Of a stretch of 64,000 nt of DNA, positions 1 through 40,565 are shown piece after piece (position 1 is the first letter of the stretch; each line of letters begins with the position of its first letter). This DNA comes from Escherichia coli (GTDB lineage Bacteria > Pseudomonadota > Gammaproteobacteria > Enterobacterales > Enterobacteriaceae). Under the pieces are notes generated by a model, which worked only from the letters and a program-made list of their open reading frames with translations, searched no databases and was not told the DNA's origin. The position numbers were made by a program, and so were the translations under genes. The stretch lies in the NCBI RefSeq assembly GCF_029227855.1, contig NZ_CP074356.1; one strand, 5' to 3'.

Positions 1-234
1 ACGTAAAATCATTAGCCCGATCACCACCAGCGGCATCCACACCAGCACGGAGCGATCTGTTTTACCAAAGCCATCATCAAGAAGTGGCTTAAGGAGCGAT
101 AACATGAAGGTATCGCTGGCTGCGTTGAGGATTAACGCTACGCCCGCCACGATCAGACCCGCTTTAAAAGGCGCAATGGTTGGCCACAGTCGGCGGAATG
201 TCTGCCACGTAGAGAGATCTTTGTCGTTATGCAT
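1..234 (-). CDS. msbA: Lipid A/phospholipid flippase MsbA, N-terminal fragment (gene runs off the left edge)
   Basis: Reverse-strand frame starts with ATG at 232-234 and translates [38 protein letters not shown], the MsbA N-terminus as I recall it. Sits directly downstream of ycaI as in the ycaI-msbA-lpxK cluster. Only about 78 codons are in the window. Confidence 0.85.
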
Positions 235-270
235 TCAAAAAACCAGCATTTGTTGAAATAGCCGCATATT

Positions 271-2535
271 CTACCCGTTATCCACTGGCACGCCAAACCA
301 CTGATGATACCAACGAGGTAAAATTTGCTCCCTGAGGCTGCTAATCCGCCAGCCTTGCGCTGAAAAATTGACCGTTATTTGCCCCTGATGAGGAGTATCA
401 AGCCACGTATAACCCTGTTGTTGATAGCGATGTTTAACTTTGCTTGAGGGCAATCGCCATGCGTTATAGCGCGATGCCGATGCGAGTGCCACTTTTCCAT
501 TCACTCGCTGAATTAATGGTAACGATGATGAGGTATTACTGCCATGATGAGGTACCTGAAGTAATGTTGCCTGCATTTGCTGCCAGTAACGGCTTAGCAT
601 CTTTTGTTCAGCAGGGGCTTCAATATCACCGGTTAGAAGAATGCTATTCGTCCCGTCATCAACCTTAACCACACAGGAATGGTTATTTCCTTTATCGTTG
701 CTACCTTGTAAAGGCCAGTGCGCGCTGAAACGCAATCCTTGCCATTGCCACGCTTCGCCACGCACACAGGGCTGATGATGTTCCCAGTTTAACGGACTTC
801 TGATCCATAACATCGGCCATATATGCAATATTGAATCCAGCCCTCCCCGGTGATCCAGATGTTCATGGCTCAGAATAACGCCTTCCGGTTCAAGATTATG
901 CCAGTGGAGCCAAGGGATAATCAGTTGTTGCCCACTATCTCCTTCAGGCCAGGCCATTCCCGTGTCATAGAGAATCGCTTTGCCGTTTCTGGCTATCACC
1001 ATTGCCAGCCCTTGCCCGACATCAAGCATGTACACTTGCCACTCGTCAGGTCGAGGTTTTTGCCACAGCGGCCAGCACATCAGCAAGCCTACAGCCACAC
1101 ACATTGCTGGCAACGTTCGCCAGGCGTTTAATCGCCATACCACCAGTAAGAACCATGGGGAAAATGTTAGCCATTGCCAACGTTCAGCAATGTTGATCCA
1201 CCCTTCCGGCAAACTCTTTAACCCCCAGAAAAGTAAAGCTAAAGACCGGTCGGCAAGAAACCATAATCCCTCTTCCAGGATTAACGGCCCGCTTAAATGC
1301 ACAACCATAGCGGCGAGGATCAACGGAACCGTGATAAATGTCACCAAGGGAATTGCAAATAGATTTGCAATAAACGAGGTCAGACTAATGCCATGAAATA
1401 TGACGATTTGCACGGGCATAAGCAGGAGGGTGATTCCCAGCTGCAGATGGATGAGGGAAACAACCGCGCGCAATACCGGCGGCAGTTGCCACTCCGGACA
1501 GGGAAACCACTGATACCAAAAAATCAGTGCCGCGACCGCAGCGGCAGAGAGCCATAAACTTTGCGAGAGAATGGCAACAGGATCCATCAGCAAAATTGCC
1601 GCCAGACAACATATCCATACATCCCAGCCACTCCACTGTCGCCCACTTAACTTAAGCATTCCCCACGTAGCAAGCGCCACCACGGTACGAAATGCAGGAG
1701 GTTGCATTCCCGTCAGCCAGGCATAAAAAGCAGCACAGCAGATTCCGCCAATTAATGGCATTTGCCAGTGGATCCAGCGCCCAGGCAGAAAAATTTGTCC
1801 ACTGCGAATGAGTCCGGCAGCCAGCAACGCCGCAAAAGCGATATGCAATCCCGATATCGCCATTAAATGCGCCGTTCCAGTATCGCGCATGATATTTTTG
1901 ATTTCTTTGGGAACGGATAACCGTTCCCCCATACCTAAACCAAGAATAACCGCATTCCACGGATAGGGTTGCAGCGTTGTTTGTAATGACGCCAGATACT
2001 GTGCACGCAGGCTACAATTCGGTTCAATGACACTTACCTGCAGAAAGCGGCCGGTCAGCGGCTGATGCTGGGCAATGGCATAACGCTGGCTATCAAAGCC
2101 GCCATCATTAAGTTGGCCATGAACTGCACGAACTTTGAGTTTCATTGACCACAGTTGCCCAGCACAAACCGCTTGCGGAAGATATTCGCCATACAGCACG
2201 AGGCCTGGCGCAGGGAATATACGTCGACCTTGTAGATGAGTAATTTGACCGTAATGAGTGGTCATACCGTCAGTAGCAGTGATCTCAACAATTGCATCCT
2301 GCGTCGCGCCAGTTAAGGTTTCTCCTGCCCACAAAATTTGCTTTGCTGCTAATATGCCCCAAACGAAAAACAGCAACGTCAGCGCGATATAACGGACAGT
2401 TTTAAAAGGGATAAATACCAGTACGCAGGCGAAGACGGTCAGAGACGCAAGGGGTAATGTCCCAGGCAATTGTGGCAAAACCAGCAACGGAAAAATTCCG
2501 CAAATTATGCATACGCCGACTGTCGTTATTTTCAT
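271..2535 (-). CDS. ycaI: ComEC/Rec2-family inner-membrane protein YcaI (cryptic competence-type DNA channel homolog)
   Basis: 780-aa ORF; polytopic membrane N-terminal part plus C-terminal metallo-beta-lactamase-like HxHxDH motif (LSHEHLDHRGG). Start trimmed to the internal Met (MKITTVGV...) to give 754 aa, the K-12 length as recalled. Confidence 0.85.
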   Translation of the reverse strand: MKITTVGVCIICGIFPLLVLPQLPGTLPLASLTVFACVLVFIPFKTVRYIALTLLFFVWGILAAKQILWAGETLTGATQDAIVEITATDGMTTHYGQITHLQGRRIFPAPGLVLYGEYLPQAVCAGQLWSMKLKVRAVHGQLNDGGFDSQRYAIAQHQPLTGRFLQVSVIEPNCSLRAQYLASLQTTLQPYPWNAVILGLGMGERLSVPKEIKNIMRDTGTAHLMAISGLHIAFAALLAAGLIRSGQIFLPGRWIHWQMPLIGGICCAAFYAWLTGMQPPAFRTVVALATWGMLKLSGRQWSGWDVWICCLAAILLMDPVAILSQSLWLSAAAVAALIFWYQWFPCPEWQLPPVLRAVVSLIHLQLGITLLLMPVQIVIFHGISLTSFIANLFAIPLVTFITVPLILAAMVVHLSGPLILEEGLWFLADRSLALLFWGLKSLPEGWINIAERWQWLTFSPWFLLVVWRLNAWRTLPAMCVAVGLLMCWPLWQKPRPDEWQVYMLDVGQGLAMVIARNGKAILYDTGMAWPEGDSGQQLIIPWLHWHNLEPEGVILSHEHLDHRGGLDSILHIWPMLWIRSPLNWEHHQPCVRGEAWQWQGLRFSAHWPLQGSNDKGNNHSCVVKVDDGTNSILLTGDIEAPAEQKMLSRYWQQMQATLLQVPHHGSNTSSSLPLIQRVNGKVALASASRYNAWRLPSSKVKHRYQQQGYTWLDTPHQGQITVNFSAQGWRISSLREQILPRWYHQWFGVPVDNG

Positions 2536-2741
2536 GCACCCCTCCCTGTTTATGGAAAGTGTGCAACTTTGTTGAGCGGTTGTCTGGTGGGAATTTTGCG
2601 TTCCCCGAGGCACGTTCAGAAGAATTTAACGAGAGGGTGAAAACTGCTCAAAACTCTGCGAGGCAGCTTCCAGTTCCAGATTAGAGAAATGAAAAAAGCA
2701 CCCGACAGGTGCTTTTCTCGCGTTCAAGTTTGAGTAAAAAC

Positions 2742-3026
2742 TTAACCGTAAATATTGGCGCGATCGCGCAGTTCTTTACCTGGTTTAAAGTGAGGAACGT
2801 ATTTTCCTTCCAGTTCTACTTTATCGCCAGTCTTCGGATTACGTCCGGTACGTGGTGCGCGGTAGTGCAAAGAGAAACTGCCGAAACCGCGGATTTCAAT
2901 ACGCTCGCCCTGCGCAAGAGTCGAGGCCATATGCTCCAGCATCTCTTTTACTGCATCTTCAACCGTCTTGGCGGGAATGTGCGATTGCTGGGTGGCAAGT
3001 CTTTCTATCAATTCTGACTTGGTCAT
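2742..3026 (-). CDS. ihfB: Integration host factor beta subunit
   Basis: 94-aa translation [11 protein letters not shown]...[12 protein letters not shown] is the IHF-beta sequence; position downstream of rpsA. Confidence 0.97.
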
Positions 3027-3185
3027 GATTCCTCCGGTTCCTTAAAGGCAAATTAAGCGGCTGCTGTTGCTGCATTGATTAAGGGCGGCCGTAGCCGCCC
3101 TTAGTGCTTGATTACAGGACGAAACCTGCAATCTGTCAAGTAAACTCAACAAACTTCGGAATAAAAATCCCGAAGAGTCAGAGAA

Positions 3186-5825: not shown

Positions 5826-6590
5826 TTACTTACCAGAGGCGATACGATCACGGATGTGTTGCGCACGCTCTGTTGATGGTGGGTGAGAGTCAAACATGGA
5901 CTGGGTACGACCGCCATCCAGGCTGGCCAATTTTTCAAAGCTGCCAACCAGCCCCTGGGTGCTGATGCCACGTTTCTTCAACAGATCAAAGGAGAAATCA
6001 TCTGCTTCGGACTCTTTATCGCGGGAGTATTTAGCATTGATCGCGCCTTCTGCGATATCACCTAATTGTGAGCGGGAAAGCTGGGAAGCCACACCGCTGG
6101 TAGCGGAAATCGCATCACGTGCGGCAACGATCGCATAAGAAGCTTTCATTTCAGCCAGCGAGTGACCCAACGCGACGTGGCCCAGTTCATGACCCAGAAC
6201 GCCTTCAATTTCGTTGTCGTTCATCATGTCCATCAGGCCACTGTAGACACGAACACAGCCGTTCGCCATCGCCCATGCGTTGACGTCGCTGGTCATATAA
6301 ACCTTATAGTTGACCGGCGTGCCATTAATATTGTTACCCAATGCTTTGGCGATTTTTGCCAGACGTTTACCGTACTTGCTGGATTTACTTGCGACTTGAT
6401 TGCCGCGGTCCATTTCGGCACAGCCCTGATTGGCAATCGCTTTTGCATCAGCATCGCTTAACGTTGCTGCTTTATAGGCATTTAAACCTGAGCTGATAGC
6501 CATATTGGTATCAATACCGTGGGTATTTTGACACCCTGTCAGTAATGCTGCAGAGGCCGCAATCGCCAGCAGTAATTTAGTATTCTTCAT
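5826..6590 (-). CDS. loiP: Outer-membrane lipoprotein metalloprotease LoiP/YcaL (M48 family)
   Basis: Lipoprotein signal with LTGC lipobox and HELGH zinc motif; start trimmed to MKNTKLLLAIA (254 aa) rather than the longest ORF. Confidence 0.9.
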   Translation of the reverse strand: MKNTKLLLAIAASAALLTGCQNTHGIDTNMAISSGLNAYKAATLSDADAKAIANQGCAEMDRGNQVASKSSKYGKRLAKIAKALGNNINGTPVNYKVYMTSDVNAWAMANGCVRVYSGLMDMMNDNEIEGVLGHELGHVALGHSLAEMKASYAIVAARDAISATSGVASQLSRSQLGDIAEGAINAKYSRDKESEADDFSFDLLKKRGISTQGLVGSFEKLASLDGGRTQSMFDSHPPSTERAQHIRDRIASGK

Positions 6591-6758
6591 GTGAATCATC
6601 CGTTGATTAATCATATATAAATATTATGTATCAATAACTTACATTGACAAACGACGCTACCATTAATCAAAATGACTCACAAGGTCCGAAAAAAAACGCC
6701 GGCAATGTGCCGACGTTTTGATAAAGAAAGATTTGGCTATTTATTGCACGTTGTTCAT

Positions 6759-8042
6759 TCAGGCTGCCTGGCTAATCCGCGCCAGCTGCTCGAAATAATC
6801 CGGAAATGTTTTGGCCGTGCATTTGGGATCAAGAATCGTCACTGGTGTATCTGACAACGCCACCAGCGAGAAACACATCGCCATCCGGTGATCATTGTAT
6901 GTTGCGATCTCGGCAAAGTTCAGTTTTTCCGGTGGAGTGATACGAATGTAATCGTGCCCCTCTTCTACTTCCGCACCAACTTTACGCAGTTCTGTTGCCA
7001 TCGCAAACAGGCGATCGGTCTCTTTAACACGCCAGTTATAGATATTGCGCAGCGTGGTGGTGCCTTTTGCAAATAACGCCGCCGTGGCAATGGTCATCGC
7101 CGCATCAGGAATATGGTTCATATCCATATCAATAGCGTTCAGTTCACCCCGCGTGCAGGAAATATAATCATCGCCCCAGCAAATGGTCGCGCCCATTTTT
7201 TCCAGCACATCAGCAAAGCGAATATCACCCTGCATACTGTTGCGTCCAATGCCGGTCACTTTTACAGTGCCGCCTTTGATTGCTGCTGCTGCCAGGAAGT
7301 AAGAAGCCGAAGATGCATCGCCTTCGACCAAATAAGTACCCGGAGACTGATAAGACTGCCCGCCTTTTACGACAAATTGTTGATAGTGCTGATTTTCAAT
7401 TTCAACACCAAACGTCTTCATCAGATTGAGTGTGATGTCGATATAAGGTTTAGAAACCAGATCGCCTTTAATACGAATCACCGTATCTTCCGGTGCAAGA
7501 GGCGCAGTCATTAACAGTGCGGTGAGGAACTGGCTGGAAACGGAGCCATCAACGTCAACGTTGCCGCCAGTAAAGCCGCCCTGTAAACGCAATGGTGGAT
7601 AATTTTCTTGTTCCAGGTAAGTGATCTTCGCCCCGCCCAGGCGCAGCGCATCCACCAGATGACCAATCGGGCGCTCTTTCATACGCGGCTCACCAGTCAG
7701 CACAATATCATTGCTACCCAGACAAAGAGCTGCCGCCAGCGGGCGCATTGCCGTTCCGGCGTTTCCGAGGAACAACTCCAGGGCACCTTCTGCGTGTAAT
7801 GGACCGCCGTTACCGATAATTTCGCAACGCGTACGATCAGCTGAAAGCGTATAGCTTACCCCTAACGCTGCTAATGCATTCAGCATATGGCGCACGTCAT
7901 CGCTATCCAGCAGATTGGTTAATACTGTTTTGCCGTGTGCTAATGCCGCCAGCAATAAAGCGCGGTTAGAAACGCTCTTGGAACCGGGCAGATTAATAGT
8001 GCCATCGACACGAGCGATGGGTTGTAACGTCAGGGATTCCAT
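6759..8042 (-). CDS. aroA: 3-phosphoshikimate 1-carboxyvinyltransferase (EPSP synthase)
   Basis: 427-aa [27 protein letters not shown]-terminus typical of AroA; serC-aroA operon order. Confidence 0.97.
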
Positions 8043-24426: not shown

Positions 24427-24615
24427 AATGGCTCACTCAAGCTTGCTCACGATTGATTCCAGTAACAAACCGTATTGTGTAATTATTTCTATAGCAGGTC
24501 GCTATATAGGCTTGTATACATCGAATAATTTGAAAATCAAAGAGATAGGTAGATTTTCACTCGAAAGTAGTATTACGTGTAAGTGAGGAGTAATTATTGT
24601 TCGGTATCAAAGGGA

Positions 24616-24648
24616 GACAAAAAAAGCGCCCGCAGGCGCTTTTTAGAT
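24616..24648 (-). terminator. Rho-independent terminator after serS
   Basis: Hairpin agcgcccgcaggcgct with flanking A/T runs about 20 bp past the serS stop. Confidence 0.6.
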
Positions 24649-24664
24649 TCAGAAAAATTGGGTA

Positions 24665-39491: not shown

Positions 39492-39579
39492 GGTGAGGTG
39501 TCCGAGTGGCTGAAGGAGCACGCCTGGAAAGTGTGTATACGGCAACGTATCGGGGGTTCGAATCCCCCCCTCACCGCCA
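39492..39579 (+). tRNA. serW: tRNA-Ser (anticodon GGA)
   Basis: 88-nt sequence GGTGAGGTGTCCGAGTGGCTGAAGGAGC...GGTTCGAATCCCCCCCTCACCGCCA with long variable arm and GGA anticodon; infA-adjacent copy, hence serW rather than serX. Confidence 0.95.
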
Positions 39580-39629: not shown

Positions 39630-39708
39630 CTGCCTGTACGGCAGTGAACGGTATAAAAATCGAGTTTTTCTTTCGGTTGGCTTTCTAAGCTGCCTGTACG
39701 GCAGTGAA
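39630..39708 (+). repeat. Two direct copies of a 19-20-bp hairpin-forming motif (tgcctgtacggcagtgaac) spaced about 59 bp apart
   Basis: Exact duplicate seen at 39631-39649 and 39690-39708 downstream of the serW terminator; each copy is itself a small palindrome (ctgcc-tgtac-ggcag). Confidence 0.7.
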
Positions 39709-39858
39709 CTCAAATACTACACGTTTAGTCCGTTATTAATAAAGCAAAACCATCTCATTTTCCTGCTACCACCCTTTTTTATCCTTACCTTCCCGCAGCA
39801 CTAATTATCAACAACTTACCATCATCATCAAAAAAAGGGTCTGAACCTCCTCCACCCC

Positions 39859-40565
39859 ATAAATAAATATCCTCCGGCATAGCCGGAGGTTTTTCAAATG
39901 CGCCTATAAGGCTCTCTTACCAGCCGCGCCCTAACAGGCGCACACGATCTGACATTTGCATCCAACTTCGTTACTTACGGCCCGTAAACGGGCTGCCCGG
40001 ATAGGGAATCGATAACTGCTCTCCCATTTTATCCTCTTCAAGCTGGTGCTTTATGTAATCCTGTATCTTCGCCGTGTTCTTACCCACTGTATCGACGTAG
40101 TACCCTCTGCACCAGAACTCCCTGTTCCTGTATTTGAATTTCAAATCACCAAACTGCTCGTAAAGCATCAGACTGCTTTTCCCTTTCAGATATCCCATAA
40201 ACCCGGATACGCTCATTTTGGGCGGGATCTCCACAAGCATATGGATATGATCTGCACAGCATTCAGCTTCCAGAATCCGTACGCTTTTCCACTCACACAG
40301 CTTTCTCAAAATACTGCCTATTGCTCTACGCTTCTCTCTGTAGAACACCTGTCTTCGGTATTTTGGCGCAAAAACTATGTGATATTTACAGTTCCATCGG
40401 GTGTGCGCTAAGCTCTTTTCGTTCCCCATTGGGACCCCCTTTTGATTTCTTGTTTGACACTTGCAGTTGCCAGACCGCAAAGTGTTTTAACAAATCAAAA
40501 GGGGTTTTAATAACTGGCTCAAAGCTGAAAGCTTTCCGGAACCCCCAGCCTAGCTGGGGGTTTTC
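39859..40565 (-). mobile_element. IS200-type insertion sequence (IS200/IS605 family, single tnpA); ends approximate
   Basis: Y1/HUH transposase ORF plus IS200-type architecture: RBS-sequestering stem-loop just upstream of the tnpA start (40440-40500) and a perfect 8-bp-stem hairpin cccccagc-cta-gctggggg at 40538-40556. The serW-clpA gap here is about 709 bp longer than I recall for K-12. Ends estimated from typical IS200 geometry, plus or minus 20 bp. Confidence 0.6.
39971..40429 (-). CDS. tnpA: IS200 transposase TnpA (Y1 HUH transposase)
   Basis: 152-aa protein from MGNEKSLAHTRWNCKYHIVFAPKYRRQVFY with HUH-type motif (HIHMLV) and catalytic Tyr region, characteristic of IS200 TnpA. Confidence 0.9.
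   Translation of the reverse strand: MGNEKSLAHTRWNCKYHIVFAPKYRRQVFYREKRRAIGSILRKLCEWKSVRILEAECCADHIHMLVEIPPKMSVSGFMGYLKGKSSLMLYEQFGDLKFKYRNREFWCRGYYVDTVGKNTAKIQDYIKHQLEEDKMGEQLSIPYPGSPFTGRK

Follow-up and report, generated by a model that had tools for sequence, protein, structure and literature searches.

The ycaI gene of Escherichia coli encodes an intact ComEC/Rec2 ortholog with a lineage variant of the metal-binding motif

Introduction

Metal-dependent DNase activity of the ComEC metallo-beta-lactamase-like (MBL) domain is known only for Moorella orthologs (PMC12455585; bioRxiv 10.64898/2026.04.23.720307). In the ComEC of M. glycerini, mutation of most of the residues H598, D600, D602, H603, D700, H725 and S728 kills nuclease activity; the D600A and S728A enzymes are slower by about 5-fold and about 3-fold, respectively (PMC12455585). 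The equivalent mutations in Legionella ComEC abolish transformation, with the exception of S662A, the counterpart of S728 (PMC12455585). HxDxDH is the normal form of the ComEC metal-binding motif and is seen in M. glycerini (H598-x-D600-x-D602-H603; PMC12455585) and, at Asp573, in B. subtilis (PMC5031224). In enterobacteria, CRP-S sites of the type TGCGA-N6-TCGCA have been predicted at competence promoters (PMC1635313), and E. coli was found to take up DNA in a hofQ-dependent manner when Sxy was expressed together with lambda Red, in an assay that examined hofQ and not ycaI (PMC3330819).

The window analysed here is a 64,000-nucleotide stretch of E. coli DNA (RefSeq assembly GCF_029227855.1, contig NZ_CP074356.1). 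A preliminary description of it had pointed to YcaI as an intact homolog of the ComEC/Rec2 DNA-uptake channel. The comparison with ComEC and Rec2 that it proposed was made through the TIGR00361 model, Moorella ComEC, the Rec2/ComEC chains of known structure and the 134 closest representatives in the database. The ycaI gene is presumably annotated in all E. coli genomes, and its homology to ComEC/Rec2 has been under discussion since the 1990s.

Results

Identity and reading frame of ycaI

The ycaI gene lies on the minus strand, which the preliminary description had not given, and runs from ATG 2535-2533 to TAG 273-271 over 755 codons encoding 754 amino acids. The frame from 271 to 2535 was read through with no internal stop and no frameshift, so the full length claimed for it holds. 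The open reading frame was a 100% match to the annotated ycaI of E. coli JNEC-KY178, and its product scored 1310 bits against PRK11539 (cut-off 969) and 1103.4 bits against the equivalog model TIGR00361 ComEC_Rec2, where residues 65-718 covered profile positions 1-663 of 663 and exceeded the curated cut-off of 190 (both NCBIfam), giving full-length membership of the family. An open reading frame of this size with such family scores is far beyond chance. The region is YcaI, the Enterobacterales ortholog of ComEC/Rec2, and is an ordinary, already annotated gene, in agreement with the identity and the low novelty first assigned to it. The coordinates of the features are collected in Table 1.

The ATG at 2535 was taken as the better start because AGGGAGGGG precedes it, because it is the RefSeq start in JNEC-KY178 and because homologs align from residues 1-8. 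Mechanical extension of the frame upstream gave a GTG start at 2613 and a protein of 780 amino acids; this candidate was rejected, as it lacks a ribosome-binding site, differs from the annotated start and lies upstream of the ATG at which homologs begin. The mechanical list of open reading frames also held candidate plus-strand frames overlapping the interior of ycaI, for example at 980-1396, in favour of which nothing speaks.

Table 1. Positions of ycaI, its predicted domains and motifs, and neighbouring signals in the window.
Feature	Position	Strand	Evidence
Intrinsic terminator of ihfB, separating ycaI from ihfB transcription	2691..2719	minus	Stem and T-run fully conserved in 10 genera
CRP-S-like dyad, one half matching, -137..-122	2657..2672	minus	Half-sites conserved, spacer and flanks vary
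Promoter-like pair CAGACA (-51..-46), 17-nt spacer, CACACT (-28..-23)	2558..2586	minus	Inferred; both blocks are conservation islands in a diverged intergenic alignment
Shine-Dalgarno sequence AGGGAGGGG	2539..2547	minus	Upstream of ATG 2535; in 10 Enterobacteriaceae it is kept as CAGGGAGG
ycaI coding sequence (754 aa and TAG stop), ComEC/Rec2-family protein	271..2535	minus	Open reading frame and translation, RefSeq annotation in identical strain, TIGR00361, PRK11539
Three N-terminal TM helices, residues 1-74, before the OB fold	2314..2535	minus	AlphaFold2 helices 3-18, 26-40 and 45-74, pLDDT >90
Periplasmic OB-fold (DUF4131) domain, residues 78-171	2023..2304	minus	Five strands and helix 149-155 in AlphaFold2 model
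Competence (channel) domain PF03772, residues 201-467	1135..1935	minus	Pfam, E=3e-53
Invariant S228-G-L-H231 in Competence domain	1843-1854	minus	Alignment of homologs
C-terminal MBL nuclease domain, residues 499-737	325..1041	minus	Pfam PF00753; structural match to 9ic4
Metal-binding motif H557-E-H559-L-D561-H562	850..867	minus	Aligns to H598-x-D600-x-D602-H603 of 9ic4
D637 (625-627) and P662-H663-H664-G665-S666 (538-552), remaining catalytic/substrate residues	538..627	minus	Aligned with M. glycerini D700, H725 and S728
Promoter-like TTGGCG-17-TAGAAT overlapping ycaI stop, 36 bp before msbA start 234	268..296	minus	Consensus scan

Domain architecture and predicted structure

The AlphaFold2 model of YcaI (pLDDT 94.6, pTM 0.92) predicted a complete ComEC build of three TM helices, OB fold, multi-helix channel and C-terminal MBL domain. 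The OB fold was placed after the three TM helices by the model, as expected of a ComEC/Rec2 protein; the DUF4131 family was matched in YcaI orthologs and, at residues 25-157 of YcaI itself, with E=1e-4 and 22.4 bits, below the Pfam gathering score of 31.6. The polytopic Competence channel retained the conserved channel residues of ComEC/Rec2, with H223, I227, S228, G229, H231, Y271, R283, N391 and P404 invariant in 103 aligned homologs. Lactamase_B (PF00753) was matched at residues 505-686 with E=8e-24, and both of the domains originally described, the competence channel and the C-terminal MBL domain, were recovered by their Pfam families. [quoted passage not shown] This isolated domain was the sole ComEC match of the Foldseek search against the PDB, in a structure library without the full-length ComEC entries that the sequence search had found.

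Nuclease residues and the HxHxDH variant

In the alignment of YcaI with M. glycerini ComEC, residues H557, H559, D561, H562, D637, H663 and S666 corresponded to H598, D600, D602, H603, D700, H725 and S728, and these positions were invariant or nearly so in the 134 closest representatives. The full set of metal ligands expected of a ComEC/Rec2 protein (H557, H559, D561, H562, D637 and H663) was found, and, as judged by alignment, YcaI contains all residues on which the nuclease activity of ComEC is known to depend. The preliminary description had named loss of the metal-binding motif on careful alignment as the result that would speak against it; the motif was complete, and the conservation of the catalytic residues could be confirmed.

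The same description had regarded HxHxDH as retained, which is correct in that the motif is intact and needs refining as to its form. HxDxDH was present in 110 of the 134 representatives and HxHxDH in 22, the latter including the ten nearest; HxHxDH was also found in all 14 named Enterobacterales species. As the ComEC norm is HxDxDH, the YcaI motif is a lineage variant and not a simple retention. The Moorella enzymes depend on Mn2+, and the histidine at the second position may therefore affect which metal is preferred. The change to the canonical MBL form in Enterobacterales could mark altered substrate handling or a switch in metal use from Mn2+ to Zn2+, which in turn might reflect repurposing of the protein, such as for DNA scavenging, in a lineage for which natural transformation is not known; we regard this reading as unlikely.

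Conservation and selection

Of 5426 complete E. coli genomes, 5425 had the gene and one lacked a match; coverage was below 80% in two. A gapless ycaI of 2265 bp was present in 59 of 60 evenly sampled genomes. The dN/dS ratio across six E. coli alleles was 0.13-0.25, with a value of about 0.13 in the channel and MBL domains. Orthologs were intact with all catalytic residues in each of the 14 named Enterobacterales species examined; ycaI of Enterobacter sp. Cy-643 was intact, with a GTG start. The gene is under purifying selection, which bears out the earlier suggestion of selection for some function.

An alternative reading is that ycaI is a decaying relic, intact by chance in this strain. Some signs of decay do exist: a Mu-like prophage has inserted into ycaI in strain 90-3040, the missing and shortened copies mentioned above represent further rare disruptions, the protein diverges rapidly between genera (72% identity to Citrobacter and 61% to Enterobacter), and residue 505, an aspartate in all of the other 134 aligned sequences, is alanine in one sampled strain (D505A). 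The counterpart of D505A in M. glycerini, D541A, however, leaves nuclease activity at the wild-type level (PMC12455585), and the low dN/dS, the gapless alleles and the intact orthologs already contradict the idea of a relic, which was rejected as scarcely credible.

Gene neighbourhood and upstream region

The gene order and orientation ihfB-ycaI-msbA were kept across Enterobacterales, and the 36-bp ycaI-msbA spacing and the order ihfB-ycaI-msbA-lpxK were kept down to 42% protein identity. This arrangement speaks for the alternative that YcaI is kept for a reason other than DNA import, such as an envelope or membrane role with msbA-lpxK or 3'-end signals for expression of the essential msbA-lpxK. 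In H. influenzae, Rec2 is also beside an msbA homolog, according to the title of Clifton et al. (1994), cited in PMC5031224, and chemical and ultrasound transformation were lower in a ycaI nonsense mutant (PMC12844161). A consensus scan for sigma-70 promoters found a single promoter-like site, where 3.2 would be expected by chance, and this site overlaps the ycaI stop codon. It is suggestive of a possible msbA promoter, which would fit the tolerance of insertions in ycaI. A cis-acting role would nevertheless not account for a dN/dS as low as about 0.13 over the channel and MBL domains, nor for the invariance of all catalytic residues across 14 species. Moreover, a Kan-cassette insertion (PMC8151780), a deletion (PMC3890546) and the Mu-like prophage insertion of strain 90-3040 are all tolerated, and msbA expression is therefore independent of intact ycaI. 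We consider it very unlikely that the gene is kept for a reason unrelated to DNA import.

The same scan returned no promoter upstream of ycaI, the promoter-like pair listed in Table 1 being too weak. Further upstream, the candidate CRP-S dyad with a TCGCA/TGCGA half-site, here TCGCA at 2657-2661, was found at the same position in Escherichia, Citrobacter, Lelliottia and Trabulsiella, with a poor second half-site. In Enterobacter sp. Ag1, Enterobacter sp. Cy-643 and the locus that encodes representative P0002 the dyad was inverted (TGCGA-N6-TCCTG/TCCAG), and Cedecea neteri kept the TGCGA half alone. A search of the window for CRP-S patterns, exact and near, gave 29 hits where 42.9 were expected and so showed no enrichment, and the upstream site is defined solely by its position and half-site conservation across species. 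Its distance of about 113 bp from the inferred ycaI transcription start is unusual; the conserved dyad fits the published CRP-S prediction (PMC1635313). A second CRP-S-like site at -77..-62 (2597-2612) was conserved within Escherichia only and was dropped.

Discussion

The best explanation as a whole is probably that YcaI is a ComEC/Rec2 ortholog acting in Sxy/CRP-induced DNA import, and its most likely role is that of a predicted Sxy/CRP-inducible single-strand DNA importer and nuclease. In this scheme the competence regulon of E. coli would be turned on by Sxy with cAMP-CRP, and double-stranded DNA would enter the periplasm via the HofQ/PpdD pilus machinery. The OB fold would hold the DNA while the MBL domain digests the 5'-leading strand; the other strand would pass 3'-first through the channel to the cytoplasm, where it could supply nucleotides or become a substrate for recombination. 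The gene itself would be expressed from its own weak promoter region, located after the ihfB terminator and carrying the conserved CRP-S-like dyad, an arrangement that fits activator dependence and silence in laboratory conditions.

A literature search found no experiment in which YcaI transported or cleaved DNA in E. coli. Spontaneous plasmid transformation, which is ComEC-independent, was unaffected by ycaI inactivation (PMC6135910, PMC3306417), and in work on fatty acids a ycaI deletion was without phenotype (PMC3890546). The non-naturally-competent context in which the gene was initially placed needs qualifying, as Sxy with lambda Red gives hofQ-dependent uptake in E. coli (PMC3330819).

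The same molecular mechanism could serve a different purpose, YcaI being kept for DNA catabolism, in which extracellular DNA yields nucleotides, carbon, nitrogen or phosphate in stationary phase, and not for transformation. Transformation was barely detectable even under sxy induction (PMC3330819), purifying selection continues in lineages with no known transformation, and Cameron and Redfield see nucleotides as the immediate gain from uptake (PMC1635313). A ycaI nonsense mutant also had a slightly lower stationary-phase OD, a weak effect from a single study (PMC12844161). Against this, feeding and recombination are not separable from sequence. The studies of DNA as a nutrient by Finkel and Kolter in 2001 and by Palchevskiy and Finkel in 2006 reportedly did not have ycaI among the genes tested, and our literature search found no test of ycaI in that role. 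The nutrient role that the preliminary description had raised is a conjecture, and catabolism as the purpose for which YcaI is kept appears somewhat doubtful.

The finding is mostly confirmatory and matters little beyond housekeeping, as the gene and its homology were already known. Because ycaI is under purifying selection and its active site and channel are complete, the long-standing puzzle of an import channel in 'non-competent' enterics is real and not an annotation artefact. For the proposed role in induced DNA import, the new ComEC structures and mutagenesis point to the exact YcaI residues to mutate, H557, D561, D637 and H663, and the existing uptake assay with Sxy and lambda Red makes a direct test of YcaI straightforward.

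Comparison with known systems

The MBL-fold nucleases RNase J and CPSF-73, as well as the phosphorylcholine esterase Pce, have the alpha-beta/beta-alpha fold and the canonical HxHxDH motif in common with YcaI, but contain beta-CASP or other accessory domains, lack a membrane channel and OB fold, and are 10-17% identical to it.

The best solved-structure relatives of YcaI are the putative gamma-proteobacterial Rec2/ComEC chains 9vc9, 9vcb and 9vcf (E=1e-76 over residues 24-747), in which the motif reads H-x-A-x-A-H compared to HxHxDH in YcaI. A natural catalytic loss was rejected as the origin of this sequence; the chains are probably engineered nuclease-dead D-to-A variants, since natural relatives read HGDNDH or HSDNDH. 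A literature search on the three PDB codes returned nothing relevant. For the gamma-proteobacterial Rec2/ComEC proteins, regulation of the CRP-S/Sxy type has been reported (PMC1635313).

The ComEC proteins of Firmicutes (B. subtilis; M. glycerini and N. carbonis, PDB 9ic4 and 30bt) combine OB fold, channel and MBL nuclease as YcaI does, and their metal-ligand and substrate positions are conserved with YcaI at an MBL identity of about 27%. [quoted passage not shown] The second motif position is histidine in YcaI and aspartate in the Firmicutes proteins (M. glycerini D600, B. subtilis Asp573), and Firmicutes ComEC is proven to be essential for transformation, whereas the role of YcaI is predicted.

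The closest described system is YcaI of E. coli K-12 (b0913, WP_000705764.1, annotated as 'ComEC family protein'), which is the same gene, with 754 amino acids, the neighbours msbA and ihfB and the same motifs. The allele in the window is uncommon: 22 of 5425 genomes match the gene at 99% identity or more, and the closest among the remaining genomes sampled reach 97.7%. Its product is 96.3% identical to the K-12 protein, and the 28 substitutions between them are allelic only, none of them falling at a catalytic or invariant residue.

Active-site motif of YcaI

Translation of ycaI gave an uninterrupted, full-length protein of 754 residues, as the preliminary description had stated. In the ComEC protein of M. 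glycerini the active site comprises H598-x-D600-x-D602-H603, D700 and H725, with S728 for substrate, while D541 is a conserved non-catalytic control (Stedman et al., PMC12455585). These residues were mapped by phmmer alignment to 9ic4, and every active-site position was found to be filled in YcaI, with His in place of D600. When 134 full-length cluster representatives were aligned, D505, H557, D561, H562, D637, H663 and S666 were invariant save in one aberrant sequence. At position 559, 110 representatives had Asp and 22 had His; the ten nearest relatives of YcaI were among the latter. Because of these counts, and because ComEC has been observed to carry Asp where the template has His (Asp573 in B. 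subtilis; Baker et al., PMC5031224), the HxHxDH sequence of YcaI is the canonical metallo-beta-lactamase (MBL) motif, yet a minority form among ComEC proteins. Of the metal-ligand mutations, D600A had the least severe effect on the M. glycerini domain in vitro, an about 5-fold loss, yet it abolished transformation in Legionella (PMC12455585).

The motif is therefore intact, as first described, but it is a lineage variant of a usual HxDxDH and not a simple retention. Histidine is a normal ligand at the equivalent position of other MBL enzymes, so the sequence gives no reason to think the YcaI nuclease inactive. The low novelty assigned to ycaI was confirmed, since both the gene and its family are already known and it behaves as expected; only the replacement of Asp by His in the nuclease motif across Enterobacterales is mildly new.

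E. coli EH01-18-04-A (locus L012, 301-2565) carries D505A, reading LAVGQG against LDVGQG; all of the other 134 ComEC sequences in the alignment have Asp here, and in M. glycerini the corresponding D541A left nuclease activity at the wild-type level (PMC12455585). The closest solved chains, 9vc9_A, 9vcb_A and 9vcf_A, read SH(G/S)ANAHAGG. Since natural relatives have SH(G/S)DNDHAGG (HGDNDH or HSDNDH), these chains were probably engineered as D-to-A double mutants lacking nuclease activity, and their HxAxAH might be misread as natural motif loss. A literature search found no publications citing the three PDB codes.

Positions of features in the window and in YcaI (domains from Pfam, NCBIfam and the AlphaFold2 model; negative positions counted upstream from the ycaI ATG at 2535)
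Feature	Position	Strand	Remarks
msbA start codon	234-232	minus	36 bp downstream from ycaI stop
ycaI ORF	271-2535	minus	754 codons and TAG stop
Shine-Dalgarno AGGGAGGGG	2547-2539	minus	precedes ycaI ATG 2535
Weak promoter-like pair CAGACA, 17-nt spacer, CACACT	-51 to -23	minus	conserved island
Candidate dyad TGGAA-N6-TCGCA	2657-2672 (-137 to -122)	minus	half-sites kept, spacer variable
ihfB intrinsic terminator	2691-2719	minus	strong; fully conserved
ihfB	2742-3026	minus	upstream neighbour of ycaI
STnc130	24517-24651	plus	Rfam gathering-score match, 140.1 bits
STnc490, Hfq-binding sRNA	40439-40562	minus	Rfam gathering-score match, 144.6 bits
Pfam DUF4131	residues 25-157		22.4 bits, under 31.6 gathering score
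Pfam Competence (PF03772)	residues 201-467		E=3e-53
Pfam Lactamase_B (PF00753)	residues 505-686		E=8e-24
NCBIfam PRK11539	residues 1-754		1310 bits (cut-off 969)
NCBIfam TIGR00361 ComEC_Rec2	residues 65-718		1103 bits (cut-off 190)
Three N-terminal helices	residues 3-74		model
Strand-rich domain with one helix	residues 78-171		model
Helical membrane domain	residues 176-491		model
Alpha-beta/beta-alpha domain	residues 499-737		model
Non-catalytic control	D505		M. glycerini D541
Metal ligand	H557		M. glycerini H598
Metal ligand	H559		M. glycerini D600
General base	D561		M. glycerini D602
Metal ligand	H562		M. glycerini H603
Metal ligand	D637		M. glycerini D700
DNA binding	H663		M. glycerini H725
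Substrate	S666		M. glycerini S728

Maintenance and divergence of ycaI

The gene was present in 5425 of 5426 complete E. coli genomes, in 5423 with coverage of at least 80%. Sixty genomes were sampled at even steps along the match ranking, and in 59 the gene gave one ungapped match of 2265 bp, carrying the annotation 'ycaI: ComEC family protein'. In the remaining one, strain 90-3040 (NZ_CP027459.1), a Mu-like prophage was inserted after about codon 395; ycaI is therefore dispensable and the essential downstream msbA is independent of it. The prophage (locus L003, 1-5960) carries tail fibre genes, a Gin-like recombinase, a Com regulator and a DNA methyltransferase, and adjoins the N-terminal ycaI fragment (5962-7185), annotated as a pseudogene.

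All six translated E. coli alleles were intact, with pairwise dN/dS of 0.13-0.25 and dS of 0.055-0.12. Against K-12, dN/dS was 0.13 for the channel, 0.14 for the MBL domain and 0.32 for the N-terminal part, which is thus less constrained. Orthologs were surveyed by scanning the genome collection once for a conserved pattern at the 3' end of ihfB. The 14 named Enterobacterales species with a whole ycaI covered Escherichia, E. albertii, three Citrobacter, Lelliottia, Enterobacter, Trabulsiella, Cedecea, Acerihabitans and Erwinia; all had an intact ORF of 751-757 aa immediately after ihfB and the sequence SHxHxDHxGG, and three used a GTG start. The selection for function that had been suggested is supported by the dN/dS range, the near-universal presence and these 14 species.

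YcaI differed from the K-12 protein at 28 of 754 positions (about 96% identity) and was 88% identical to that of E. albertii. The window allele is uncommon: only 22 of the 5425 genomes were at least 99% identical, the best identity in the other sampled genomes was 97.7%, and 13 genomes were only 90-95% identical. Measured against K-12, dS reached 0.093 in ycaI compared with 0.016 in ihfB and 0.036 in the first 78 codons of msbA, where sites are few. The YcaI protein of SCPM-O-B-8794 (NZ_JAATUR010000002.1; locus L075, 3015-5276), a GTDB species representative labelled E. coli, was 92% identical to that of the window, nearer to the E. albertii value than to the E. coli alleles compared; the strain is probably a member of a cryptic Escherichia lineage.

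Gene start, neighbours and upstream region

ATG 2535 is the better start codon, because it follows a Shine-Dalgarno sequence, is the start that RefSeq annotates in E. coli JNEC-KY178 (100% identical DNA across window 1-3100) and corresponds to the start in orthologs; GTG 2613, the upstream limit of the mechanical ORF, was rejected on these grounds. Further upstream on the same strand lie rpsA and cmk, and the order cmk-rpsA-ihfB-ycaI-msbA-lpxK was retained in relatives as far as 42% identity. At the locus of P0018, a more distant relative with the motif HQDNDH (L006, 292-2490), the ComEC gene lies away from ihfB and msbA and adjoins ribA, pgpB, lapA and lapB homologs, so the link to msbA is lineage-specific.

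Outside the terminator, the 206-bp ihfB-ycaI spacer was poorly conserved among ten Enterobacteriaceae but for three islands, the third being the Shine-Dalgarno sequence. The dyad was inverted at the same distance (TGCGA-N6-TCCTG or TCCAG) in Enterobacter sp. Ag1, Enterobacter sp. Cy-643 and the locus of representative P0002, and Cedecea neteri retained the TGCGA half with the second half absent. Sxy-dependent CRP (CRP-S) sites are characterised by the half-site TGCGA/TCGCA; Cameron and Redfield predicted CRP-S sites at the promoters of competence genes in enterobacteria, in an analysis whose orthologs included rec2 (PMC1635313). The dyad is considered a putative CRP-S site, with a poor second half-site and an unusual spacing to the inferred promoter. 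A sigma-70-like TTGGCG-17-TAGAAT (268-296, minus) could plausibly serve msbA-lpxK as an internal promoter; its -10 hexamer contains the ycaI stop, and msbA starts 36 bp further on.

Elsewhere in the window, two CRISPR repeat copies 60 bp apart (39630-39709) adjoin a tRNA (39492-39576); they share a 20-nt core, 39682-39709 is a full Rfam CRISPR-DR4 match, and no array was seen beyond the two copies. The element presumably resembles the orphan type I-F (CRISPR4-type) remnant of E. coli near infA and clpA.

Function and comparison with known ComEC proteins

Spontaneous plasmid transformation is unaffected by ycaI inactivation, dsDNA entering by a different route (PMC6135910, PMC3306417). In work on fatty acids, deleting ycaI produced no noticeable phenotype (PMC3890546), and a ycaI kan insertion is a routine linked marker for msbA (PMC8151780). 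In DH5alpha, a ycaI nonsense mutation came with somewhat reduced transformation by chemical and ultrasound methods, and the mutant reached a slightly lower OD in stationary phase (PMC12844161). The description of E. coli as non-naturally competent needs qualifying: sxy expression with lambda Red gave hofQ-dependent transformants, hofQ being the gene tested (PMC3330819), so the E. coli uptake machinery works. From its orthologs we infer that YcaI would hold DNA at the OB fold (DUF4131), degrade the 5' strand with the MBL domain and pass the 3' strand through the channel. The physiological purpose may be nutrition, as first suggested, or repair or recombination.

The Pfam and NCBIfam matches bore out the presence of both the channel and the C-terminal MBL-like domain. 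[quoted passage not shown] The AlphaFold2 model, with 103 homologs as input, was very confident (mean pLDDT 94.6, pTM 0.92). Using Foldseek, its C-terminal domain superposed on 9ic4 with a TM score of 0.80 and an rmsd of 2.8 Å, followed by Pce, RNase J and CPSF-73. In the membrane domain two short strands (382-384 and 446-448) bracket two long helices. Cryo-EM of N. carbonis ComEC revealed three TM helices, then an OB fold, and a small antiparallel sheet bracketing helices NS6/NS7 (bioRxiv 10.64898/2026.04.23.720307). The predicted YcaI structure agrees with this description both in placing three TM helices ahead of the OB fold and in the strand-bracketed helices.
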